From Ignavibacteriota bacterium (GTDB lineage: Bacteria; Bacteroidota; Ignavibacteria; UBA10030; UBA6906): a DNA stretch of 64,000 bases. The stretch covers positions 258,774-322,773 of the forward strand of contig CAWIOS010000015.1 of NCBI GenBank assembly GCA_963837815.1. The letters run 5' to 3'. The first letter of the stretch is position 1. The number at the start of each line of letters is the position of its first letter. The translations under genes and the position numbers were made by a program. The notes below the pieces were generated by a model. It searched no databases and had not been told where the DNA came from. It worked only from the letters and a program-made list of their open reading frames with translations. This document shows, in pieces, positions 3,716 to 21,811 of this stretch.

Positions 3716-5356
3716 ATGACGATGAAACTCCGGAAAATCCTGCCTGTGGTTGGTCTGATCGCGGTCGCCCTGGCCGGGCTGATTATTCTCCAGGTCTCCC
3801 TCCTCGAAAACGCGTTTCTCCTGAAAGAGCAGGCGTTCCGGCAGAACGTGAAAACGGCTCTGGGCACCGCCGCGCTCAAGGTGCAGGCCGGTGAGACCCT
3901 CTCACGCGTCGTGCGCTCCGAAGGTGCGTCCCGTTCGCACCCCGTTCCGGGGAGGAAGAAGGAAACGCCGTCTTCCCGCCGGACGCGTGTCGCAGGTAAT
4001 TCGATCTCGTACAACGACGGGCCGGATAGGGAGCCGGTTGTGCGCGTACGCCTGTTCCACGCCAGGGCCGGGGACACACTTCAAACCGATACGCTGCGGG
4101 GAACGGGTGAAGGCGGGGTGAGTTCGTCCGCCCTCTCCGTCGGGAAGGGAGGGTACTATTACGATTTCTTCTCGGACAGCGTGTCGACAATCGTGAGAAC
4201 CGGCACAACCTCTCCCGGGGAGACCGCGAGGACGGGGGTGGTGGACAGGGACCGCCTGTTCGTGGTTTCGACCGTCTATGACGACCTGCTTTCGGAAGGG
4301 AAGGGGATCGAAAAGAAGATCAACCCGGTGCTCCTCGACTCGGTCCTGAAGGCGAGCATGCACGAGGCGGGCATACCGCTGCCGTTTGCCTACGGCATAC
4401 TCTCCCCGCGGAGGGATTCCGTTCTCGTTGCGAACCCTGCGGGCGCGGCGCAGGATCTCCGCGCGACCGAATTCCACGCTCCCCTCTTTCACCTCGCGTT
4501 CGGAGCGCCGCAGGGGGAGCTCGCGGTTTACTTCAGCGGAAGGGAGGCCTATCTCTTCGGTCAGCTCTGGCCTGCCCTCACCGCGTCTGTCATCTTCATT
4601 GCCATCATCGCGCTCTGTTTTGCCTACACCGTCCGGACGATAATGCGCCAGCAGCGCCTGGCCGCGGGCATGGTGGAATTCGTCAACAACATGACGCACG
4701 AATTCAAGACGCCCATAGCGACGATCACGCTCGCAACCGAAGCGATCCGCCGTCCGGACGTCATCCGGAGCAGCGCCCGGGTCGGAAAGTACAACGGCAT
4801 GATTGCCGAGGAAACTCTCAGGATGAAGAACCAGGTGGACCGGATTCTCCAGATGGCGGTCGTCGAGGAAGGGGACTACGAGCTTTCTCTCACAGGCGTC
4901 GACATGGATGCGGTCATCCGGGCGGCGGTGGGAAGCGCCGCGCTCGGCGTCGAATCACGCGGAGGGAGCATCACCTGCGCGCTCGGGGCCGAGCGCCACG
5001 TGATACGGGGGGACGCGGTGCACCTTGCCAGCGTCGTCCACAACATCCTTGATAACGCCTCGAAGTATTCCCCCGGCGCCCCTGTGATAACGGTCAGCAC
5101 CGCGAATGACGGGGCATGGCTCGTCGTCCGCGTGAAGGACCGGGGGATCGGCATCCCCCCGGAGCATATCCAGAGGGTATTCGACAAGTACTACCGTGTC
5201 CCCACAGGAAACCTCCACGAGGTGAAGGGATTCGGACTCGGCCTGAGTTACGTAAGGCTCCTCGTTGAAGCCCACGGCGGAACAATCACGCTGAAAAGCC
5301 TGCCGGAGGAGGGGACAGAGGTGGAGATGAGATTCCCGGAAAGGGCGCCGCAGTGA
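3716..5356 (+). CDS. Sensor histidine kinase (membrane-bound)
   Basis: The likely start is MTMKLRKILPVVGLIAVALAGLIIL (TM1). The H-box is MTHEFKTPIATI, and the HATPase G-boxes are DRGIGIPPEHIQRVFDKYYRV and GFGLGLSY. Its stop overlaps the response regulator start. Confidence 0.85.
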   Translation: MTMKLRKILPVVGLIAVALAGLIILQVSLLENAFLLKEQAFRQNVKTALGTAALKVQAGETLSRVVRSEGASRSHPVPGRKKETPSSRRTRVAGNSISYNDGPDREPVVRVRLFHARAGDTLQTDTLRGTGEGGVSSSALSVGKGGYYYDFFSDSVSTIVRTGTTSPGETARTGVVDRDRLFVVSTVYDDLLSEGKGIEKKINPVLLDSVLKASMHEAGIPLPFAYGILSPRRDSVLVANPAGAAQDLRATEFHAPLFHLAFGAPQGELAVYFSGREAYLFGQLWPALTASVIFIAIIALCFAYTVRTIMRQQRLAAGMVEFVNNMTHEFKTPIATITLATEAIRRPDVIRSSARVGKYNGMIAEETLRMKNQVDRILQMAVVEEGDYELSLTGVDMDAVIRAAVGSAALGVESRGGSITCALGAERHVIRGDAVHLASVVHNILDNASKYSPGAPVITVSTANDGAWLVVRVKDRGIGIPPEHIQRVFDKYYRVPTGNLHEVKGFGLGLSYVRLLVEAHGGTITLKSLPEEGTEVEMRFPERAPQ

Positions 5357-6048
5357 GACGGACTGTCCTGCTCCTGGAAGACGACCCGAACCTGGGTCTC
5401 ATACTGCAGGAACACCTGGAGATGAACGGGTTCGGCGTCAAACTGTGCCTGAACGGCGAAGAGGGAGCCGGCGCCTACCGGAAGGGGAAGTACGACCTCT
5501 GTCTCGTTGATGTGATGATGCCAAGGAAGGACGGGTTCTCGTTCGCCCGCGATGTCCGTGCCGTCGACAGGGAGACTCCTATCATATTCCTGACGGCGAG
5601 GGCGATGAAAGAGGACCGGATCGAAGGGTTGAAGATAGGTGCGGATGACTATTTGACGAAGCCCTTCAGCATGGAGGAGCTCCTCCTCCGCATCAGGGCG
5701 GTGCTCCGGCGGGCCGGGCGGCTGGAGGAAGACGCGGCTCCCCCTGTCGAATTCTCACTCGGCGCCTATGCGTTTGATCCCGTGAAGCGCACGCTCCGCC
5801 GGGGGCGGTCGACGAGAAAACTCACGGCACGCGAATCCGATCTCCTCCGGCTGCTCTGCCTCCACATGAACGCGACGCTGGAACGGGATGCCGCGCTGCG
5901 CGAGCTCTGGGGGGACGACAGCTACTTCAACAGCCGGAGCATGGATGTCTTTGTCTCCCGGCTCAGGAAATGTCTCGCCGCCGATCCCGAAGTGAAGATC
6001 ATGAACGTTCCCGGAAAAGGGTTCAGGCTCGTCGTGGGGGGCAGGTAG
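5353..6048 (+). CDS. OmpR/PhoB-family response regulator (receiver plus winged-helix)
   Basis: The start is GTG at 5353. The receiver domain has LLLEDDPN...DLCLVDVMMP...ADDYLTKPF, and the C-terminal winged-helix segment is ...VFVSRLRKCL...GKGFRL. Confidence 0.9.
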   Translation: MRRTVLLLEDDPNLGLILQEHLEMNGFGVKLCLNGEEGAGAYRKGKYDLCLVDVMMPRKDGFSFARDVRAVDRETPIIFLTARAMKEDRIEGLKIGADDYLTKPFSMEELLLRIRAVLRRAGRLEEDAAPPVEFSLGAYAFDPVKRTLRRGRSTRKLTARESDLLRLLCLHMNATLERDAALRELWGDDSYFNSRSMDVFVSRLRKCLAADPEVKIMNVPGKGFRLVVGGR

Positions 6049-6149
6049 GGGCCTCTTCTCCCCTTTTTTCCGAACGCCGGTGTGGTACCGTCGTCCCTGC
6101 TCGCACCGCACCTTTCGCCGTCCGGCGTATCATCCCGATTCCCTTCCCC

Positions 6150-10943: not shown

Positions 10944-11984
10944 TCATTCTTCGTCAATGACCCATGTATCCAGCAGATTCTCGGGAAGTCCGGCGATGAA
11001 CCGGGAAGGTTTGGAGAGGACGAGCCCCGACTCGCGGTCGTAGATGTTGATAGGATACGTGATGAAGAGATTCTGCTGCGCCCTCGTGCACGCCACGTAC
11101 ATCAGCCGTCTCTCCTCCTCCATCGAATCCTCGCTCATCGCCGCGCGGCTTGCAGGGAATCGTCCCTCGAGCGCGTATATGACAAACACCGTGTGCCATT
11201 CGAGCCCCTTCGCGCTGTGGATTGTCGAAAGCACGAGCTTTTCGTCGTCTGTCCCCGGGGCCGTAATGTCGGTGACGCTCTCCGTGGCGGGCTCAAGCGC
11301 CAGGTCGGTCAGGAGCGTCCCCAGCGACCGGTACCGTTCGGTGATCTGCTGGAACATCTCGAGATCCTTCCGCCGCTTGTTGTAATCATCGTAGCGGCGT
11401 TTGAACACCGGCTCGTAGTAATTCAGGAGCATCTGCACCTTGTCGGCCGGAGCAATGTGCGCCGGGCTCGCGTCTTTGAGTATGCCGAACAGGTCGCTCA
11501 CACGGTCCGGGTACCCGGCGAATCCTGTCCAGAACGCCGGGAGTGACCGGGAAGTATCGCCCCCTCCTCCGGATGTTGTCGCACGGCGCGCGAGCACGTC
11601 TTCGATCACTTTCTCCGCCGTCCGCGGGCCCACACCTTCCACGAGGAGAAGTATCCGGTTCCACGCCACCGCATCGCGGGGATTCTCAAGGACGCGGAGG
11701 TACGCCACCATGTCCTTGATATGCGCGGTCTCGATGAATTTGAACCCGCCGAATTTGACAAATGGGACGTTTGCCTTGTTCAGTTCAATTTCGAGATCAA
11801 ACGAAAGGTATCCTGAGCGGAAGAGGACGGCGATCGTGTTGAGGAGGATTCCCTGCTCCCGGAGCTCGAGAACCTTTTGCACGACGAACTTGGACTGGAA
11901 GTTTTCGCTTTCCGCCACCACAATCGTCGGCAGCTCCCCGCCGGGCTTATGCGTGAAGAGCTCTTTCTGGAATTTGTGTCTCAT
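10944..11984 (-). CDS. UvrD/PcrA-family helicase, C-terminal half (domains 2A/2B, motifs IVa-VI)
   Basis: Motif V is TIHSAKGLEWHTVFV and motif VI is LMYVACTRAQQNLFITY. Its N-terminus, MRHKFQKELFTHKPGGELPTIVV, continues exactly where the upstream half ends (compare E. coli UvrD ...GRLGKKLWTDGADGEPISLY). Confidence 0.85.
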   Translation of the reverse strand: MRHKFQKELFTHKPGGELPTIVVAESENFQSKFVVQKVLELREQGILLNTIAVLFRSGYLSFDLEIELNKANVPFVKFGGFKFIETAHIKDMVAYLRVLENPRDAVAWNRILLLVEGVGPRTAEKVIEDVLARRATTSGGGGDTSRSLPAFWTGFAGYPDRVSDLFGILKDASPAHIAPADKVQMLLNYYEPVFKRRYDDYNKRRKDLEMFQQITERYRSLGTLLTDLALEPATESVTDITAPGTDDEKLVLSTIHSAKGLEWHTVFVIYALEGRFPASRAAMSEDSMEEERRLMYVACTRAQQNLFITYPINIYDRESGLVLSKPSRFIAGLPENLLDTWVIDEE

Positions 11985-12919
11985 GAGACTGCTCCCGATA
12001 TCGCCCGGATGTAGTCAGGTGTTGTTCCGCAGCACCCCCCGATGAACGATGCCCCGGCGTCTACCCATTGACTTGCAAGCCCTGCGTACTGTTGAGGGCT
12101 GACATCCCTTCTGAGGCCCGCCCCCTGTTCCTCGCCGGTACGTCCGACGTTCGCATAGACGCCGACGTGCAGTTTTCCGCCGGCATGAAACTCATCGAGC
12201 GCAGACAGCATCGCGGTCAGCGGACGGCCGATCTCGTCTGCGGACACGCAGTTGATTGACAGCGCCGCAGGTGAAAGAGCCGCGACCTGTCGTACCGCTT
12301 CTGCAATCGGCTCGCCGCCGAACAGCGGGCCATCCGGCATGCAGAGAAAACTGACGACGTACTCCAACCCGGTTTCACGCGCGGCACGTGCGGCCGCAAG
12401 TGCCTCCCGTATCGTCCCCATCGTCTCGAGAAGAAGAAAATCAACTCCTGCATCTTTGAGACGCGCGGCCTGCTCACGATGTTCGTCTCGCAGTGCCGGG
12501 TCCGGGGGGACCAATTCCGCATGATAGCAATCCTCGAGCGGCGCGATGGAGCCTGCAAGAATCACCCGCCGGTCAGGAAACGACGTGATCGATTCCCGCG
12601 CAATCGTCACCGCGAGCGCCGTAAGCTCCGCCGATCGGTCGGGGAGCCCCGCCCCCCGGAATGTTCTTCGCGTCGTCCTGAACGTATTGCTCGTGATGAT
12701 ATCCGCCCCTGCCCTTATGTAGTCGTCGTGTATCTGCCGAACGGTTCCCGGCGAGGCAACGAGCGCGTTGGCAGACCAGAGCGGGAGGGCCGTCGCGACT
12801 CCCCGCCGCTCCAGCTCCGTCCCCATCGCCCCGTCGAGTATCGCCGGCTTCCGCTCTGCGAGGAGGCGTGCAAGCGGTCCCGTTCCGGTTTCACTCCCGT
12901 GCGCGGCGGAGGATTTCAT
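11981..12919 (-). CDS. Homocysteine S-methyltransferase family protein (MmuM/BHMT-like, Pfam S-methyl_trans)
   Basis: It has the LDGAMGTELERRG motif and the Zn-binding GGCCGTTPDYI motif. It is in a different reading frame from the two helicase halves and overlaps both junctions (by 29 nt and 4 nt). Confidence 0.8.
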   Translation of the reverse strand: MKSSAAHGSETGTGPLARLLAERKPAILDGAMGTELERRGVATALPLWSANALVASPGTVRQIHDDYIRAGADIITSNTFRTTRRTFRGAGLPDRSAELTALAVTIARESITSFPDRRVILAGSIAPLEDCYHAELVPPDPALRDEHREQAARLKDAGVDFLLLETMGTIREALAAARAARETGLEYVVSFLCMPDGPLFGGEPIAEAVRQVAALSPAALSINCVSADEIGRPLTAMLSALDEFHAGGKLHVGVYANVGRTGEEQGAGLRRDVSPQQYAGLASQWVDAGASFIGGCCGTTPDYIRAISGAVS

Positions 12920-13880
12920 TTGTAAGGTTCAGTATCGGCTGGGTGCTCCGGTAATTCTCCTCGAGCTTGACAAGCGTGCATCCCGGAAATGCTTCCGGGA
13001 AGTCGAGTATGTTCCGGATGGTCGCCCCGCGGAATGAATAGATCGACTGCGCGTCGTCCCCCACGACCATGATATTCCCGTGGGAGGAGGCGAGGAGCGA
13101 CACAATCTCCGCCTGTATCTTGTTCGTGTCCTGGTACTCGTCCACCATGATGTAGCGGAACCGGTCCGAAATCGTCCGCCGCACCCTGTCGTTGTCGCGC
13201 AGGAGTTTCCTGAGGTAAATCAGAAGGTCGTCATAGTCCATCATGTTATGACCGGCCTTGTATTGTTCGAATGCAGACTGGAGCTTCAGGATTTCATCCA
13301 GGTAGTCCTCATAATGCGGGTAGTCCTCTTTCAGTATGTCCTTGACCGGTGTCAGCGTGTTCACCGCGCGCGAGAAAATGGTGTACAGCGTCTGCTTGCG
13401 CGGGAACCGCTTCTCTTTAGTGTCGTACTTGTGCTGGGTGCGGAGGAGATTGACGACGTCCTCGGCGTCCCCCTGGTCGAGTATCGAGAACGACGAATCG
13501 AAATCGAGGAGCGGCGCGTACTGGCGGAGGATGAGGTTGGCGAACGAGTGAAACGTCCCGCCGGCGACCTTCTCGCAACGGGCGTCGAGGAGCATGGAAG
13601 CGCGGCGAAGCATCTCCTGCGCCGCGCGCCGGGTGAACGTCAGGAGGAGGATCGACTCGGGCTTCACGCCGAGCTCCACGAGATACGCGACCCGGTACGT
13701 GATCGTGCGCGTCTTCCCCGTGCCGGCCCCGGCGATGATAAGGTGCGGCCCGTTCACCGAGGAGACCGCCTGGTACTGCGCCGGGTTGAGCTGGTTCTTG
13801 TAGTCGATCCGGAAATGCCGCGGGGGCTCCGGTTCCGGAGCGTCCTTGAAGAGAGATTTCTTGAGCGTGTATTTCTTCAT
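12891..13880 (-). CDS. UvrD/PcrA-family helicase, N-terminal half (motifs I-IV)
   Basis: Motif I is AGAGTGKTRT, motif II is MVDEYQDTN, motif III is VVGDDAQSIYSFRGA, and motif IV is ENYRSTQPIL. It ends with ...NEILRRARE. Confidence 0.85.
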   Translation of the reverse strand: MKKYTLKKSLFKDAPEPEPPRHFRIDYKNQLNPAQYQAVSSVNGPHLIIAGAGTGKTRTITYRVAYLVELGVKPESILLLTFTRRAAQEMLRRASMLLDARCEKVAGGTFHSFANLILRQYAPLLDFDSSFSILDQGDAEDVVNLLRTQHKYDTKEKRFPRKQTLYTIFSRAVNTLTPVKDILKEDYPHYEDYLDEILKLQSAFEQYKAGHNMMDYDDLLIYLRKLLRDNDRVRRTISDRFRYIMVDEYQDTNKIQAEIVSLLASSHGNIMVVGDDAQSIYSFRGATIRNILDFPEAFPGCTLVKLEENYRSTQPILNLTNEILRRARE

Positions 13881-13901: not shown

Positions 13902-14898
13902 TTACAGCGTCTCGACGGGGTACTTGTCGATCAGGTCAAGTATTGCCTCGATCGTCTTCGGTGAATTTCCCTCTGCCCTGTTGTTCACGTACGCGTAGAG
14001 CTGGCGCCCTTCGGCGACGCACCGCCGGACTGTCTCCGCAAGCCCCTGGCGGAGTTCGGGGTTTTCCTCTTTGATGGATTCGTACGGCTGGAAGAGATCC
14101 ACGGCCTCCTGATACGTTCTCCCGGGTTTCAGCAGCGCCCGCGCCACCGAGAATCTTGCGCTCAAGACGCCCGAGAGCTGAATCTGCTCCATGATCGGCG
14201 GCATCTTCGTCCAGCTGTTCAGGACGTGTGCGGCGCCCCTGTCGGCAAGCATCGTAAGGTAGTCGCCCGTCAGGTACTCCCTGTTCCGTATCTCGACCGC
14301 GTACGAGAACTCCTTCGGGAGGCGGGCGAGGAAGTCGTCCATAAGCCTGAGAAACTTTTCGTACGTCACCCCCGAGTTCGGATAGAACGCCGAGAATTCG
14401 AATATGATCACCCCGCGCTTTTTCCGCAGAGACTCAACCGGGCGGAGAAACGCGTCTTCGAAGAGCTCGAGATTCAGGAAATCCGGGTTCTCCCGACCGG
14501 CATTCGCTCCGTGACGTGGCAGGTTCGGATAGCGCCTGACGGTGATACGGTCGGTCACCTTCAGCGACAGCCTGAAATCATCCGTGGTGCTGTCATGGAT
14601 GATCTGCATCTGGTGCGCGTCCGGGAAATCATAAAGCGCGAAATCGGCGCACACGGTCGGGAAAAGACTGGAGTACTCGGTAATACATTCCCTCGCAAAC
14701 GCCTTCTTCGACGGGTACGCCCTGGTGTAGACAATCCCCTGCCACCCCGGGTACTTCCACGACGAAGACCCGAAATAGATCCCCCTGCTCGCCCAGCGGT
14801 GAAGCCGTTCGCGGTTGCGCTCGACGTACGGGGACTCCGGCGCAGTGACGTCGTCGAAGAGCGGGAGCGTATCCGGAGACTGTTTCTTCTTCGCCATG
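13902..14898 (-). CDS. DUF72 (YecE/UPF0759) family protein
   Basis: The start is MAKKKQSP. It has the family motifs ...IYFGSSSWKYPGWQGIVY... and C-terminal ...LYAYVNNRAEGN. Confidence 0.75.
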
Positions 14899-14982: not shown

Positions 14983-15763
14983 CTACCGCAGCGACGCAAG
15001 CCCGAAAACTTTGACCAGGGTCCAGAGTACCCAGAGCGCGAAGACAAGCACGAGCACCTTGGGCGTGTCCTTCTGGAAAAGGCGCGCGAGTCCGATCCCC
15101 GTCACCGCAAGCGTCCAGAACGTGAACACGTTCACCGAAGCGGCTAGAAGATGCATCTTGTTCTCGAGGGAGAAGTCGGAGACAAACAGCGCGAGGCTCG
15201 GCGAGGCGAACATCGAGCTCATGCCGATTGCCAGGATCGTCGTTACGACGCTTTCGATCATCGAGATGAAGAACGTGAGCCCCACCACCTCGACGACCTT
15301 CATGTACGGTACTGTCGCCTTCATCACCCCTCTTCCGAGTAGCCAGAACACGAGGCCTCCGAGGAACAGCGCGAAAAACGGCCCGAGGATGGCGCTGACG
15401 TACGAAAATATGAGTGTGCCGGTCTGTCCCATTCCGGCCATCTGGTCGCGGGCCTGGCTCGCCTGCTCCTGCGTCATTTTGCCCGCCGCGATCTGCTTCT
15501 GCAAGCCTTTTTCCATCTGCTCGCTTGCCATCCGTTTCATCTGGTCTGAGAGAACGGGATTGCTCGTCATCAGGTACGCCATGATGATGCCGACGACGAC
15601 GAGTACCAATGTCGGAATCACCCAGTTGCTGCTCGTCGGAGGGGTTTGCCGGACATTGTCGAACAATTCTGAAGGTGAGGCAAACACGCCGACGAGTTTA
15701 TCACTGAACGACATCGGCTTCACCTCTTCCGTCGGGGCAGCCTGTACCGGAGTTTCGCTCATG
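14983..15763 (-). CDS. Yip1-domain integral membrane protein
   Basis: It has five predicted TM helices and a Yip1-like organisation. The likely start is MSETPVQ, with AAGGA 9 nt upstream. Confidence 0.55.
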
Positions 15764-16110
15764 GGAGGGGATCCTTCTTGTGTGGGGGTGTTCGGGACGG
15801 GAAAAATGTACAAAACGGAACACTGAGAAGAAAGGCGGAAAAAAACGGAAAACAACACGCCGGCACCCCATCCTGCCGGGGGACAGGACGGGGTGCCCGG
15901 CTTGCCGTCGTCGTGCGGTCCGTGGAAGCGGCGGGTCGGCGGCGGCGGAACGACGTTCTCCCCGGCCCCCCTCCGGTGCCGGGGTGCCGGTACAGGTAAC
16001 TACATGTTTCTGCGGACGTTTGCGAGATCGGATGGAATTTATTTTTATGCGGGAGCTCTCCGCGCGTTGTCCCTCAACGACTTCACAAGTTTTCCCCGGG
16101 AACGCACACG

Positions 16111-16160
16111 ACAAATTTGTTGTCTGATTATTGACAACACGACAAAAATGTCGTATCATT
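16111..16160 (+). promoter_or_regulatory. Promoter (TTGACA-N18-TATCAT) overlapped by three palindromes: ACAAATTTGT, GTTGTC-N8-GACAAC and ACGACA-N4-TGTCGT. This is a candidate damage-response (LexA-like) operator.
   Basis: Read directly from the sequence at 16111-16160. It lies immediately upstream of the Zn-ribbon/dinB/polB cassette. An RBS, AGGAGGTGAA, sits at 16204-16213. Confidence 0.5.
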
Positions 16161-16216
16161 TTTCCGGGCCCCGCGCCCCCGAACTATTAATGTTTCGCCG
16201 AACAGGAGGTGAACCC

Positions 16217-16471
16217 GTGATCCGCACCGAACTGCTGTATGTCCTGTCGCCGGCGGAATGCTGCGTGTGCGAGCGGACATTGAGCGCCCGCGAGCTGGAG
16301 GAATTTTACGGAATGGCGGACGACACGCTGAGGGGAGACATCCAGTGTCCCTCCTGTGCCCTCCACACCCTGACACTGTGCCGCGAATGTTCATGCCGCT
16401 ACACGGCGGACCCGGGTGGCGTGTGCGGGGAATGCCAGAGACACGACTATGCGCACATTCTTTCTTCTTGA
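16217..16471 (+). CDS. Small Cys-rich zinc-ribbon protein (about 84 aa)
   Basis: It has a GTG start with a strong SD. There are four Cys pairs (CCVCE, CPSC, CRECSC, CGEC). It overlaps the dinB start by 23 nt. Confidence 0.45.
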   Translation: MIRTELLYVLSPAECCVCERTLSARELEEFYGMADDTLRGDIQCPSCALHTLTLCRECSCRYTADPGGVCGECQRHDYAHILSS

Positions 16472-17672
16472 CATCGATTGTTTCTTCGCCTCCGTCGAAA
16501 TGGCCCTGCACCCTGAACTCCGCGGCAAACCGCTGTGCGTCGGGGGACTGCGCACCGACAGGGGAATCGTCGCGTGTCCGAACTACGAGGCACGGAAATA
16601 CGGCGTGCGTACCGCCATGCCGTTGCGTACCGCCGCCCGGCTTCTTCCGTCGCAGGCGGTATTCATGCGCGGAAGCTACCGGCTCTACGGCGAATATTCG
16701 GAAAAAGTCATGACGATACTCCGGGATTTCACCCCCGACATGGAACAGGTGAGCGTGGACGAAGCGTACATGGACGTGACCGGGTGCCTGCATTTCTGGG
16801 GACACGACCCACGGCGCATGGCGGAGGCGATGAAGGAGCGGATATGGCGCGAATGCGGGCTGAGCGTTTCGATCGGCGCTGCATCGAACAGGGTATGCGC
16901 GAAGATCGCCGCCTCCGTGAACAAGCCGGACGGGCTCGTCGTGATACCGCCGGGGGCCGAGCGCGAGTTCCTGGATCCGCTCCCGGTGGAAGCCGTTCCC
17001 GGCATCGGTCCCCGGACGCTTCCGCATCTCCACACGCACGGCATCAGGACGGTGCGGGAGGCCGTGACCTACGTCGAGCGCAACACGCGTGCGACCGGAC
17101 AGTATCCCCCCCTGCGCGAGGAACGGCTCCGCACGTTTTCCCTCTGCTCCTTTATCGCCTCATGCGCCCTCCCGTCCGACGAGGCGATACTTCCGCACGA
17201 TCACGTCGAGAAATCGATTTCCCGCGACAGGACATTCGGTACGGACACCGCCGACAGCGAGCGCGTGAGCGCCACGCTCTACTGCCTCGCGGAACGCTGC
17301 TGCAAGACGCTCCGGCAGGATGAGCTCCTTGCCTCCACCGTCACCGTGCGCGTGCGGTTTGCCGACTTCGCGACGGTGCAGAAACAGTCCACGCTCCCCC
17401 GTCCCTCGTCGAACGAAGAAGACGTCTTCGCCGCCGCCCGGCGGCTGCTCGCGGCGCTTTCCGCGCCGGGGCAGCTCGTCCGTCTTGTCGGCGTGAAGGT
17501 GTCCAATCTGTCGGGGGCGGAAGAAGCCCAGCTTGACCTCGGCGTCACCGCCTCGGAAAAATTCGGCGCGCTCCACCGGCGGCTGGACGGCCTCCAGACC
17601 CGGTACGGGTACGACAGCATCCGCTGGGGGATCACCTGCAATGCGGCGGAGCGGCGGGAGGAACGGGAATGA
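16449..17672 (+). CDS. dinB: DNA polymerase IV (Y-family translesion polymerase)
   Basis: The catalytic residues are present in LLDIDCFFASVEM and SVDEAYMDVTG. Other DinB motifs are GIVACPNYEARKYGV and GIGPRT. Confidence 0.9.
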   Translation: MRTFFLLDIDCFFASVEMALHPELRGKPLCVGGLRTDRGIVACPNYEARKYGVRTAMPLRTAARLLPSQAVFMRGSYRLYGEYSEKVMTILRDFTPDMEQVSVDEAYMDVTGCLHFWGHDPRRMAEAMKERIWRECGLSVSIGAASNRVCAKIAASVNKPDGLVVIPPGAEREFLDPLPVEAVPGIGPRTLPHLHTHGIRTVREAVTYVERNTRATGQYPPLREERLRTFSLCSFIASCALPSDEAILPHDHVEKSISRDRTFGTDTADSERVSATLYCLAERCCKTLRQDELLASTVTVRVRFADFATVQKQSTLPRPSSNEEDVFAAARRLLAALSAPGQLVRLVGVKVSNLSGAEEAQLDLGVTASEKFGALHRRLDGLQTRYGYDSIRWGITCNAAERREERE

Positions 17673-18578: not shown

Positions 18579-19364
18579 ATGACCACCGATCCGCCCGTTC
18601 CGTACACGCAGCTCGTGCAGCAATTCAAGTCCGCCCCGCCGGGAAAACTGTACTGCATTCACGGTACGGGGGGCGTCTTCCGCATCTCCCTTGCGGCGGC
18701 GGCGCACGTGCTCCTGGGCGGCATGCCGGTGACGCTCGTGGACGGCACGAACCGGTTCGACGCGTACTACCTCGCCGAGTTCGCGCGGAAACACGCGGGG
18801 GTGCGCCCGGACGGGAGGAGGATCACCCCGGAGAGCCTGCTTGACAACATATTCATCTCCCGTGCGTTCACCTGCTACCAGATGGAAGCCGTGATCACGG
18901 AGCGCCTCCCCCTTTTCGTCCGGCAGAAGGGCTCCCCCGTCGTCATCATATTCGGCCTTCTCGACACGTTCTACGACGAGCAGGCGCCGCTCTTCCAGGT
19001 GAAAGCGGGACTGGAGAGGATTGCCGTCGCACTCCGGGCTCTCAAACAGGACCAGATCGCCGTGCTTCTGGCCTCGCTGGACGTGAAGCTCGACTCGAAG
19101 GAGCGAAACGCGCTGTTCCCGCGCATGATGGCGGTCATGGATCGCGTGTACCGACTCGTCGGGGACGCGGGGAGCCAGCGGCTCCTGCCGGAGATTCTCA
19201 CCGGGGCAACCGGCGCACGGGGGGAAAAGAACAGTCATACGACAAAGGAGGGCGCATTCCATGGGACGGACCGTACCGACGTTCACGATGGTCATCCAGC
19301 AGGAGATGGAAAGCTGGGGAAAATTCCGGCGCGGGCTGCGCAGGGAAGACCAGGAGGCGCTTGA
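18579..19364 (+). CDS. RecA-fold protein with a degenerate P-loop (ImuA/SulA-like)
   Basis: The start is MTTDPPVPYTQ, 4 nt after the upstream stop. It has the degenerate Walker A GTGGVFRIS (no GKT/S), a Walker-B-like hydrophobic strand VVIIFGLLDTFYDE, and a low-complexity C-terminal tail. Confidence 0.5.
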   Translation: MTTDPPVPYTQLVQQFKSAPPGKLYCIHGTGGVFRISLAAAAHVLLGGMPVTLVDGTNRFDAYYLAEFARKHAGVRPDGRRITPESLLDNIFISRAFTCYQMEAVITERLPLFVRQKGSPVVIIFGLLDTFYDEQAPLFQVKAGLERIAVALRALKQDQIAVLLASLDVKLDSKERNALFPRMMAVMDRVYRLVGDAGSQRLLPEILTGATGARGEKNSHTTKEGAFHGTDRTDVHDGHPAGDGKLGKIPARAAQGRPGGA

Positions 19365-19554
19365 CGAACTCTTCCGCGCGGCGCGCCTCCAGCTTGCGGG
19401 GAGCGCCTACGCCGCACGGCCGATCCCCTTCGAAAGCATCGCCATGTGCATGCTCCTGGCGCAGCACAGGATCATCGCGGACCTGCAGCAGCGGATGAAA
19501 CAACTGGAAGCAGCGCATGACGACAGCGCGGACAATCACCGGGTGGCTGTTTGA
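19288..19554 (+). CDS. Small all-helical hypothetical protein. It overlaps the 3' end of the ImuA-like ORF and the 5' end of polB.
   Basis: It is in a third reading frame and reads MVIQQEMESWGKFRRGLRREDQEALDELF.... Its stop overlaps the polB start by 38 nt. Confidence 0.3.
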   Translation: MVIQQEMESWGKFRRGLRREDQEALDELFRAARLQLAGSAYAARPIPFESIAMCMLLAQHRIIADLQQRMKQLEAAHDDSADNHRVAV

Positions 19555-21811
19555 CCTCTATCCGTCACGGCAGGGAATCACCCTCTGGCTTGTGGACCGT
19601 GACGGGGCGAAGCACTGCTGCCACGACGCGTTCGCCCCGTGGTTTTACATGCATGTCCCGCCTTCGGACGAGGCGCGCGTCGAGGCAATCGTGCGCCTTT
19701 TTCCGTTCCGCGTCACGCTCGACAGGACGGTGCGGAAGGAAATCTACACGAACGAAGAATGGGACGTCCTCCGCGTCACCGTGCATGACACGCTCCACCT
19801 GAAGGACGTCGTCCGCCGCCTCGAACCGCACTTCCCGCATTTCGTCTTTTTCGATTCCGACATCTCCTCTCAGCAGCTCTACCTCTACAGGACGGGGCTC
19901 TTCCCGCTTGGCTTCGCCGAGTACACGATCGACGAAGAGGGGCGTCTCGCCGGATGGAAACTGGACGACGATCCCGCCGCGCTGGAATACCTGCTCCCAC
20001 CCCTTGTGACGATGACGCTCAAGAGCATCCCCGACTTCGTCTCGCCGAAATACCGGAAGACGTACCAGCTCGAGGTCGGGTACGAGGGGAGCATGTACGC
20101 GCTCGAAAACGAGGAGCCGGCCGAGGTGATCGGATCGCTCAACCGCCATCTCACGCGGTGCGACCCGGACATCATTATGACCGAATTCGGGGATGCCATA
20201 CTCCTCCCGATGCTCACGCGCATTGCGGCCGAGGAGGGACTCCCGCTTGCACTCAACAGGGACCCCGATGCGGGGTACTTTACGACAGGCGAAACGAGCT
20301 ACTTCGCCTACGGCAAAATTGTCCACAAGGACGGCGCATTTGAGCTGGCCGGGCGCTGGCACCTTGACACGGAGAACTCGTTCATGATGGGGGAAGCAAG
20401 CCTCGACGGCGTCGCGGAAATCGCGCGCCTGACGCAGCTTCCCGTGCAGCACCAGTCCCGCGCGACGATCGGCTCGGCGCTCTCCTCGATGCAGCTCTCC
20501 TGGGCGTCGCGCAACGGGTACCTCATACCGGCCAAAAAACGGGAGCCCGAGGAATTCAAATCCGCCTCCACGCTCCTCCTTGCCGACCGCGGGGGGCTCA
20601 TATTCCAGCCTGTCATGGGATTCCACGAACAGATCGCGGAAATGGACTTCGTTTCGATGTACCCCACGATCATGGTCGAGCACAACGTCTCCCCGGAGAC
20701 CGTCAACTGCCGCTGCTGCCGCAACGAAGCGGTCCCCGAACTGGGCTACACGATCTGCGAGCGCCGTGAAGGGATCGTCCCCGCCACGCTCCGCACCGTC
20801 GTCACGAAGCGGGCCGCGTACAAGAAGACCAGGAAAGCCCTCAAGCGCGCCGGGGACGGGAAATGGAAGCTGTACGACCGCCGGCAGAATGCGCTCAAAT
20901 GGATGCTCGTCACCTGCTTCGGCTACCTCGGTTACAAGAACGCCCGTTTCGGGCGGATCGAGGCGCACGAATCGGTAAACGCATTCTCCCGCGAAGCGAT
21001 CCTGCGCGCCAAGGAAATTGCGGAGGATCGGGGATACAAATTCATACACGCGATCGTGGACTGCATGTGGCTCTGGAAGGAGGGGGCGACCGAAGCGGAT
21101 TACGAATCACTCGCCCTGGAGGTGCGGAAAATCGTCGGGATCGACATCTCGCTCGAGGGGATGTACAACTGGATACTCTTCCCCTCGTCGAAGATGGATC
21201 CCCGCATACCGACCGCCAACCGGTACGTCGGCTGGTACGCAAACAACGAGATCAAGATCCGCGGCATCGAAGTCCGGAGGCGCGACACCCCCGTCTTCAT
21301 AAAGCGCCTCCAGGGGGAAATGCTCCAGATATTCGGCACGGCGCCCACCGTTGCAAAGCTGGAAGAACTCATCCCCGCGGCCCTTGCGAAGGCCGGCGAA
21401 GCGGTCGCGCTCCTCCGCTCCGGAACGGCGAACCCGCTCGAGCTTGTCATCCGCCGCCACCTGTCGCGTGACCCGGAAGAATACACGACAAACACCGCAA
21501 GTGCCGGCGCGGCGAAAGCCCTCGACGAGGCGGGCGTCCATCTTGCGCCGGGGGAAATGGTCGAATACATCATCGTGGACGCTTCCGGGAAAAAGAAGCC
21601 CGCGAAGGCGCTCCCGGTCCCCCTCTACGAATCCGCCGAAGGGTACGACATCGAAACGTACACCGACATGGCGCTCAAAGCCGTTGAGACGCTCCTCCTG
21701 CCGTTCGGGTACGACGTGGAGAAGCTGCGCGAAGTGTTCGGCTGCTCGCTGAAGAAGAAGTTCCCGGCCATCTCCCGCGACACGGTGCAGGGGTCACTCT
21801 TCGATTGCTGA
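19517..21811 (+). CDS. polB: B-family DNA polymerase, predicted proofreading-deficient (Exo I motif lost) with a divergent motif C
   Basis: Motif A is DFVSMYPTIM and motif B is KWMLVTCFGYLGYKNARFG. Motif C is IHAIVDCMW instead of IYGDTDS. The Exo I position reads VTMTLKS where Pol II has VSIDIET. At 764 aa it is about the length of E. coli Pol II. Confidence 0.8.
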   Translation: MTTARTITGWLFDLYPSRQGITLWLVDRDGAKHCCHDAFAPWFYMHVPPSDEARVEAIVRLFPFRVTLDRTVRKEIYTNEEWDVLRVTVHDTLHLKDVVRRLEPHFPHFVFFDSDISSQQLYLYRTGLFPLGFAEYTIDEEGRLAGWKLDDDPAALEYLLPPLVTMTLKSIPDFVSPKYRKTYQLEVGYEGSMYALENEEPAEVIGSLNRHLTRCDPDIIMTEFGDAILLPMLTRIAAEEGLPLALNRDPDAGYFTTGETSYFAYGKIVHKDGAFELAGRWHLDTENSFMMGEASLDGVAEIARLTQLPVQHQSRATIGSALSSMQLSWASRNGYLIPAKKREPEEFKSASTLLLADRGGLIFQPVMGFHEQIAEMDFVSMYPTIMVEHNVSPETVNCRCCRNEAVPELGYTICERREGIVPATLRTVVTKRAAYKKTRKALKRAGDGKWKLYDRRQNALKWMLVTCFGYLGYKNARFGRIEAHESVNAFSREAILRAKEIAEDRGYKFIHAIVDCMWLWKEGATEADYESLALEVRKIVGIDISLEGMYNWILFPSSKMDPRIPTANRYVGWYANNEIKIRGIEVRRRDTPVFIKRLQGEMLQIFGTAPTVAKLEELIPAALAKAGEAVALLRSGTANPLELVIRRHLSRDPEEYTTNTASAGAAKALDEAGVHLAPGEMVEYIIVDASGKKKPAKALPVPLYESAEGYDIETYTDMALKAVETLLLPFGYDVEKLREVFGCSLKKKFPAISRDTVQGSLFDC

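Follow-up and report, generated by a model that had tools for sequence, protein, structure and literature searches.

Phage-like repressors of the S24 family run SOS-like networks in Bacteroidetes (PMC8565304) and in Francisella, where FddR is a co-opted lambdoid-phage S24 repressor (PMC13148647). The recurrent members of SOS regulons in other phyla include SRAP, SplB-like radical-SAM proteins, and translesion polymerases (PMC8565304, PMC7739468). Operons of the bacterial PolB2 mutasome lie in neighborhoods enriched in lexA, SRAP, and DUF72, and their damage-inducibility has been predicted from gene neighborhood only, with no promoter or operator described (Timinskas et al. 2025; PMC11791011). 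Here, we describe the promoter of one such operon, located at positions 16108-16159 of a 64-kb stretch of DNA (the window) from an uncultured, high-GC member of Ignavibacteriota, a group often labeled Bacteroidota in the records of metagenome-assembled genomes (MAGs). The promoter is predicted to drive a damage-tolerance operon that encodes a zinc-ribbon protein, DinB, a DUF72-like protein, iRadA, PPB2, and PolB2, and it carries two copies of a 16-bp palindrome.

On comparative grounds, we consider it fairly likely that the two palindromes are operators of a phage-type, self-cleaving S24 repressor that runs an SOS-like response on this error-prone polymerase cluster. A first-pass annotation of the window had proposed an SOS-type operator at this promoter. 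Our analysis supports that proposal in kind but differs on the number of sites, the type of box, and the regulator, which is probably a phage-like S24 repressor with an XRE/CI-type helix-turn-helix (HTH) and without PF01726, and not canonical LexA. The literature that we searched holds no DNA damage regulon or binding motif for Ignavibacteriota; what is new here is an undescribed box, its putative regulon, and a candidate regulator in a phylum for which we found no described damage response. These elements amount to a concrete operator, a candidate repressor, and a first list of regulon members, and they give a first entry point to the regulation of a bacterial PolB2 mutasome operon. They would also add a case to an emerging trend, previously noted in Streptococcaceae, Bacteroidetes, and Francisella, for S24 repressors of phage type to take over from LexA the role of SOS master regulator. 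As the mechanism is conventional, it extends a known theme without overturning it.

A dual-operator promoter and its conservation

The -35 and -10 hexamers of the cassette promoter, TTGACA and TATCAT, agree with the consensus at 11 of 12 positions in a promoter scan and are separated by a spacer of 17 nt, not the 18 nt originally assigned. Within the spacer lies the proximal operator, whose final T doubles as the start of the -10 hexamer and which scores 23.2 bits with a position weight matrix. The distal operator is located upstream, and its left arm, ACGACA, is conserved while its right arm is variable. A repeat finder reports the pair as direct copies (ACACGACAAATTTGTTGT and ACACGACAAAAATGTCGT) that lie 31 bp apart and are each palindromic, of the form ACGACA-N4-TGTYGT. 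The operator consensus is a 16-bp palindrome, ACGACA-N4-TGTCGT, in which the N4 spacer consists of A or T.

All of the strings quoted in the first-pass annotation are present, including ACAAATTTGT at 16111 and the promoter, dyad, and translation start elements listed in Table 1. It counted three dyads, however, where we find two operators. The middle dyad, GTTGTC-N8-GACAAC, arises where the -35 region meets the distal operator's right arm. We rejected it as a third operator or separate element, as it is not conserved: its arms pair 6/6 only in the window, and their mean pairing across 28 cassettes is 3.25/6. We also set aside CGAACTATTAATGTTTCG in the 5' untranslated region (16180-16197), which relatives do not conserve.

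Neither a single palindrome nor its core is unusual in this DNA. The window contains 34 perfect 6-N4-6 palindromes compared with approximately 21 expected from mononucleotide shuffles (maximum, 35), so that one such palindrome is unremarkable, and the core pattern CGACANNNNTGTCG is not enriched when up to one mismatch is allowed (6 matches compared with 4 expected). What supports the operators is therefore their arrangement and conservation. When species-representative genomes were scanned with the window polymerase, 29 loci were retrieved, each from an Ignavibacteriota or Bacteroidota MAG (L-numbers denote loci retrieved from related genomes or contigs for comparison). Every one of the 23 cassette loci from this first scan that include the upstream region has the same promoter and operator layout, which proceeds from the distal site through about 10 bp, TTGACA, 2 to 3 nt, and CGACAAAwwTGTCG to TATnnT. 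Five additional cassettes from L274-L279 bring the count to 28 of 28. Of the 28 cassettes, 26 have a distal site at 30 to 32 bp upstream of the proximal one, and 25 have a proximal palindrome whose arms pair 6/6; the arms of the distal site pair at a mean of 4.1/6. A column-by-column profile confines the conservation to the distal site, the -35 hexamer, the proximal site, and the -10 hexamer, with unrelated flanks. The repressor-type operator arrangement first suspected on the near-consensus promoter of a DNA damage cassette is borne out.

The abundance of 6-N4-6 palindromes in the window, and a terminator scan that calls a weak hairpin with a trailing T-run at the proximal site, could be taken to mean that the block merely reflects chance features of an AT-rich promoter or forms an RNA or DNA hairpin without a protein partner. 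The comparative data argue otherwise. The arm sequences are invariant and show no compensatory changes, and the spacer between them varies among A and T only, which reads as the signature of recognition by a protein and not of a hairpin. Furthermore, the site occupies the nontranscribed spacer here and lies downstream of the -10 hexamer elsewhere, the block persists in all 28 cassettes while the flanks have diverged, and Rfam returned no credible match for the operator region or for a separate hairpin at 15860-15901. We regard chance or a bare hairpin as next to impossible, and these alignments appear, for practical purposes, to refute it.

The operator matches none of the published SOS boxes with which we compared it (PMC8565304, PMC7739468, PMC13148647), including the Balneolaeota direct repeat, and the motif, searched for in the literature under several notations, gave no relevant result. 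It differs from the Bacteroidetes motifs GGA-N5-TCC, CTAA-N5-TTAG, and TTAC-N5-GTAA (PMC8565304). Canonical LexA boxes (CTGT-N8-ACAG in Escherichia coli and CGAAC-N4-GTTCG in Gram-positive bacteria) are likewise palindromes that can occur in tandem over the promoter of an error-prone polymerase, but the resemblance to CTGT-N8-ACAG that had been remarked on earlier is superficial. The half-sites ACGAC/GTCG are shared with DriD, a WYL-domain protein that acts in Caulobacter's response to DNA damage and binds the 20-bp palindrome ATACGACCGTTTCTGTCGCA (ACGAC-N7-GTCG), and another WYL-domain protein, BrxR, is described as a palindrome-binding repressor (PMC9186387). A WYL-domain regulator of the DriD/CapW/BrxR type that senses single-stranded DNA in a LexA-independent damage response could thus be proposed for our sites. 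Yet the half-sites are spaced by N6 here and by N7 in DriD, and a site within the spacer of a consensus promoter has the geometry of repression, whereas DriD, a member of a different protein family, acts as an activator from a site suited to that role. In addition, no WYL gene is found among the Pfam-annotated neighbors of operator-bearing loci; what is linked to the operator is an S24 gene that has an operator itself. We hold a WYL-domain regulator to be very improbable.

A candidate phage-type S24 repressor

The S24 gene emerged from loci L274, L275, L277, and L279, which we retrieved using as a query the PolB2 of a "Bacteroidota bacterium" that the supplement of PMC11791011 lists with the gene order LexA-iRadA-PPB2-PolB2. 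In all four loci, the cassette is adjoined by a divergent gene whose product of 215 to 216 amino acids (aa) combines N-terminal HTH_3/HTH_19/Phage_CI_repr matches with a C-terminal Peptidase_S24 domain in Pfam. The same scan found no LexA winged HTH (LexA_DNA_bind, PF01726) in these proteins, and their N-terminal part matches the 434 and P22 C2 repressors. A comparison with solved structures aligns the C-terminal domain to residues 75-188 of E. coli LexA and shows that the cleavage and catalytic residues are kept: VPAGA versus VAAGE for the Ala-Gly site, GNSM versus GMSM for the serine, and TVKLIK versus TVKRLK for the lysine.

The cassette promoter in these four loci reads TTGACAagACGACAAAwATGTCGTATnnT, and the operator recurs at the S24 gene itself. 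A separate promoter of the gene in L274 and L279 (TTGACA-18-TATCTT or TATTTT) is immediately succeeded by TACGACATAAATGTCAT, and a Shine-Dalgarno sequence and ATG come next; the distal operator of L275 overlaps a divergent TTGACA-17-TATCAT directed at the S24 gene. Judging from the operator placement in the promoters of L274 and L279, the S24 gene appears to be autoregulated. The gene labeled "LexA" for the Bacteroidota MAG in the PMC11791011 supplement is probably of this XRE-S24 type.

The operators might instead be bound by a canonical LexA (winged HTH PF01726 plus S24) that is encoded elsewhere, the motif being a diverged LexA box. The Gram-positive LexA box, CGAACATATGTTCG, has a 5-4-5 geometry and an A/T-rich spacer, both of which are shared by the core CGACA-N4-TGTCG. 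LexA motifs also drift strongly between phyla (PMC8565304), lexA has been reported near bacterial PolB2 operons (PMC11791011), and DinB, SRAP, and an SplB-like gene are common to the canonical SOS regulon and the genes described here. The linked regulator points the other way: the sole operator-linked S24 gene, present in four lineages, encodes an XRE/CI HTH and lacks PF01726, and its product is matched by the NCBIfam lexA model over the C-terminal part alone, at 67 bits compared with a cut-off of 111. No canonical LexA was seen in any of the fetched DNA. We judge canonical LexA to be an unlikely regulator of these sites.

The phage-type S24 repressor that we favor resembles the noncanonical LexA of Bacteroidetes, which also joins a CI-like HTH to an S24 domain, targets translesion polymerases and SplB-like radical-SAM genes, is autoregulated, and often has two sites per promoter (PMC8565304). 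These regulators occur in Bacteroidetes, and the MAGs in our data set are variously labeled Ignavibacteriota or Bacteroidota. The S24 proteins here end in ...MWRVIKVIKSV right after the S24 core, while those of Bacteroidetes are about 30 residues longer (DLSL..LVLDLQKEVQKLKK); to judge from these termini, the extra C-terminal helix of the Bacteroidetes proteins is missing here. With the S24 C-terminal domain, BLASTP returned E values of approximately 1e-18 for lambda CI and E. coli LexA compared with 1e-6 to 1e-3 for three Bacteroidetes regulators. By these features, the Ignavibacteriota S24 protein seems not to belong to the Bacteroidetes family, although it would work in a similar way.

FddR and the Ignavibacteriota S24 proteins are alike in being phage-type, in their Ala-Gly site and Ser-Lys dyad, in autoregulation, in their position divergent from translesion polymerase genes, and in the use of a palindrome, properties that are read here from sequence alone. 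They differ in phylum and in motif, GTG-N11-CAC as opposed to ACGACA-N4-TGTCGT, and the candidate regulon here includes the PolB2 mutasome, radical SAM/SRAP, and DUF72. It has been proposed that repressor-plus-target modules are acquired and that redundant repressor copies are later lost (PMC13148647). The S24 gene adjoins the cassette in some lineages and is absent beside it in the clade of the window, a distribution that fits this proposal.

The operator at other genes

At a threshold of 20 bits, the operator matrix finds 42 matches in 586 kb of pooled related DNA compared with 1 in a reversed-sequence null. In the loci that were outside the construction of the matrix, all matches of at least 19 bits fall in the promoter regions of regulon operons or of the S24 gene. 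The window has no further strong matrix site elsewhere. In related genomes, the motif recurs upstream of other DNA damage genes, at a radical-SAM/SRAP operon, at DUF72, and at the S24 repressor gene, and is usually accompanied by another copy some 30 bp away.

In L103 and L270-L272, a PA0069-family radical-SAM gene for a "DNA repair photolyase" is preceded by TTGACA-17-TATCAT or TATTTT with the operator immediately behind it. Three Ignavibacteriales contigs carry two operators 30 to 31 bp apart upstream of this gene, and the radical-SAM homologs of L103 are annotated as Ignavibacteriales or Ignavibacteria. The cluster headed by the radical-SAM gene continues with a 57-aa membrane protein and then SRAP, and it is adjoined by a divergent DUF72 gene and a helicase. 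DUF72 in L270 and L271 has the dual-operator layout of the window (distal site, TTGACA, 2 nt, ACGACAAAAATGTCGT, and ATTGTC or ATCTGA), and another PA0069-family radical-SAM gene, in L066, is preceded by TTGACC-ag-16mer-ATCGT. The 57-aa protein (L270, 11191-11364; L271 and L272, 11195-11368; L103, 1964-2101) is conserved and combines a single transmembrane helix at the N terminus with an acidic tail; that it is a damage-induced division inhibitor is speculation.

A scan of metagenome contigs for the exact 16-mer, in which the choice of flanks kept out cassette promoters, yielded at least 120 stretches. About three-quarters of the exact matches listed fall within long open reading frames (ORFs) and look like chance, and fewer than ten of those listed look regulatory (L046, L066, L075, L076, L081, and L103). 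Three of these have a gene for a coiled-coil protein of about 63 aa directly behind the operator (L046, 435-626; L076, 1513-1710; L075, 779-967 on the minus strand). The L076 gene has the full -35/-10 layout and is adjoined by DUF3276 (Pur-alpha-like; Pfam) and, by eye, a DUF932-like protein, and the L075 gene has a similar Pur-alpha-like neighbor. The setting of this family suggests a mobile-element context. In L081 (5136-6126), a short TcmP-looking ORF and then a DUF5131 (phage Gp37/Gp68) gene come after the operator-bearing promoter TTGACT-tc-16mer-TACCTT, upstream of which lies a distal-like site.

A scan of viral contigs did not lead to the regulator; it turned up prophage hicAB promoters and iteron-like repeats. 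The 16-mer ACGACAAATTTGTCGT lies between the -35 and -10 hexamers before hicA-hicB in L167 (~5100-5200), L184 (~6030-6125), and L245, with a second copy 32 bp upstream. These prophage contigs have P2-like tail genes and a GC content of about 0.4, look proteobacterial, and encode a HicB with a C-terminal HTH. Two low-GC contigs, L146 (6792-6865) and L222 (207-279), hold three closely spaced copies of the 16-mer in near-identical sequence. The copies in L146 lie within a 276-aa ORF with a replication-initiator-looking product and encode TTNMS-type repeats, resembling iterons.

The hicAB promoters, together with the chance-like share of metagenome matches inside long ORFs, raise the alternative that the operator serves an XRE-type regulator unrelated to DNA damage, such as a HicB-like antitoxin, or is a generic promoter feature whose link to repair is coincidental. 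In DNA of the Ignavibacteriota type, however, all strong sites found lie at DNA damage-related operons or at the S24 gene, and the operator loci contain neither hicAB nor a HicB homolog. We consider a regulator unrelated to damage quite improbable in Ignavibacteriota. The hicAB prophage module also hints that repressor/operator pairs of the ACGACA-N4-TGTCGT type move between phages and hosts.

In the mechanism that we favor, a strong sigma-70-type promoter carries two operators for one dimeric repressor, and each palindrome would be bound by a repressor dimer. Since the proximal operator occupies the whole -35/-10 spacer, a repressor bound to it would exclude RNA polymerase. The 31 bp between the operators equal three helical turns and so would place both on the same face of the DNA, a spacing that would permit cooperative binding. 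The repressor would be a self-cleaving protein of the S24 family with an XRE/CI-type HTH. As the clade of the window has no S24 gene beside the cassette, this protein would have to act there in trans, from elsewhere in the genome. RecA filaments formed upon DNA damage would trigger its self-cleavage at Ala-Gly, which would release the cassette together with radical-SAM/SRAP, DUF72, and the repressor gene itself.

Several observations weigh against or limit this mechanism. No repressor gene occurs in the 64-kb window or in about 30 loci of its own high-GC clade (L001-L029, L278, L280, and L281), and tblastn searches with LexA, RecA, UmuD, and lambda CI found nothing in the window or the first 29 related loci. 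The repressor proposed for the window genome, which is the weakest point of the mechanism, is modeled on relatives whose PolB2 is only about 50 to 65% identical. Neither the window nor the fetched loci contain a recA, lexA, or uvrA gene. The radical-SAM ortholog in L273 lacks the site, and regulon membership varies between lineages. Lastly, XRE-type HTH proteins of other families can use the 16-mer, because the same promoter layout precedes prophage hicA-hicB.

We would extend the S24 repressor reading to the whole phylum only tentatively. Ignavibacteriota could possess a phylum-wide SOS-like network under a CI-type S24 repressor that was domesticated independently and is neither canonical LexA nor the noncanonical LexA of Bacteroidetes, with an undescribed box in a fixed dual-operator module that has spread to an archaeal-derived PolB2 mutasome, radical-SAM/SRAP, DUF72, and small proteins. 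The small membrane and coiled-coil proteins among these may be damage-induced division inhibitors.

Cassette genes and neighboring features

The cassette is the known bacterial PolB2 operon (iRadA-PPB2-PolB2) extended by DinB, DUF72-like, and zinc-ribbon genes (Table 1). It shares with the operons of PMC11791011 the gene order, the IVD active-site variant, and a DUF72 neighbor, and differs from them in the additional genes, which precede iRadA within the operon. The supplement of that study lists comparable operons of Ignavibacteriales and Bacteroidota. The PolB2 active-site motif, HAIVDCMWL at aa 511, has IVD in place of DxD, and the PolB2 supplement shows the same motif column. An exact-protein look-up of the window polymerase returned no record. 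DinB retains the catalytic motifs DIDCFFASVE and SVDEAY and looks active on this basis.

Table 1. Features of the cassette promoter, the cassette, and its divergent neighbors in the window
Feature	Position	Strand	Basis or remark
DUF72, divergent neighbor	13902-14897	-	Pfam; synteny
Yip1 membrane protein, divergent neighbor	14983-15762	-	Pfam; synteny
Distal operator ACGACAAATTTGTTGT	16108-16123		Imperfect palindrome; direct and inverted repeat (repeat finder)
Incidental dyad GTTGTC-tgattatt-GACAAC (N8)	16119-16138		Right arm of distal operator plus -35 region
-35 hexamer TTGACA	16131-16136	+	Promoter scan; invariant in 28 cassettes
Proximal operator ACGACAAAAATGTCGT (ACGACA-aaaa-TGTCGT)	16139-16154		Perfect palindrome; fills the -35/-10 spacer
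-10 hexamer TATCAT	16154-16159	+	Promoter scan; TATnnT kept in most cassettes
Shine-Dalgarno sequence AGGAGGTGAA (at 16204) and GTG start (at 16217)	16204-16219	+	Start kept in close relatives
84-aa Cys-rich protein with four CxxC (zinc-ribbon), first gene of the cassette	16217-16471	+	Overlaps dinB start
Y-family polymerase, DinB-like	16449-17672	+	Pfam IMS, IMS_C, IMS_HHH
DUF72-like protein, 301 aa	17669-18574	+	tblastn, 24-28% identity to upstream DUF72
iRadA-like protein (inactive RecA/RadA homolog)	18579-19364	+	Always upstream of PolB2 in relatives
PPB2 (DUF8156), small helical PolB2 partner	19261-19554	+	55-57% identity to DUF8156-annotated genes of L275, L277, L279
PolB2-type family B polymerase	19517-21811	+	Pfam DNA_pol_B

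The 84-aa CxxC protein has no Pfam match, and its homologs open the cassette in many loci, even those without dinB (L011, L012, and L024). We rejected this protein as the regulator, as the operator is also found in cassettes without its gene. A local copy of Pfam likewise gave no match for the iRadA, PPB2, and DUF72-like ORFs of the window, while the DUF72-like ortholog in L281 has a weak DUF72 match in precomputed Pfam annotation. The true 3' end of iRadA is probably near 19260, because its ORF overlaps PPB2.

The divergent yip1 and DUF72 pair is kept beside the cassette in relatives. Between yip1 and the cassette promoter, a GC-rich hairpin, CCGGCACCCCATCCTGCCGGGGGACAGGACGGGGTGCCCGG, at 15860-15901 is followed by a T-run on the minus strand, resembles a terminator, and is kept in the closest relatives (L001, L002, L019, and L022). 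Alignment also reveals a conserved GMAAGATAGGRAA just 5' of yip1 in L008, L010, L011, L020, L023, and L024, corresponding to about 15795-15815 in the window. The reverse complement of this element is TAtcTTTG. The Bacteroidetes-type -7 promoter box is TAnnTTTG, to which it is similar, and the clade may use two promoter styles, one TAnnTTTG-like and the other the operator-controlled TTGACA/TATnnT.

Variants of the operon occur in three loci. In L013 (5387-5965) and L017 (3567-4250), an unrelated protein of about 190 to 230 aa replaces iRadA/PPB2 before a PolB2 homolog that is 70% identical to that of the window, with an adjoining two-component system and without the operator. In L275 (6806-7434), a MazE/PIN toxin-antitoxin pair is inserted within the PolB2 operon, between PPB2 and the polymerase. 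Farther from the promoter, a UvrD-like helicase on the minus strand of the window (10944-13880) is split into an N-terminal ORF (PF00580, 12891-13880) and a C-terminal ORF (PF13361, 10944-11984). A homocysteine S-methyltransferase ORF (PF02574, 11981-12919) of the same strand lies between the two halves, the stops and starts of these ORFs overlap, and the same order of UvrD half, PF02574, and UvrD half is found in the relatives L280 and L281.

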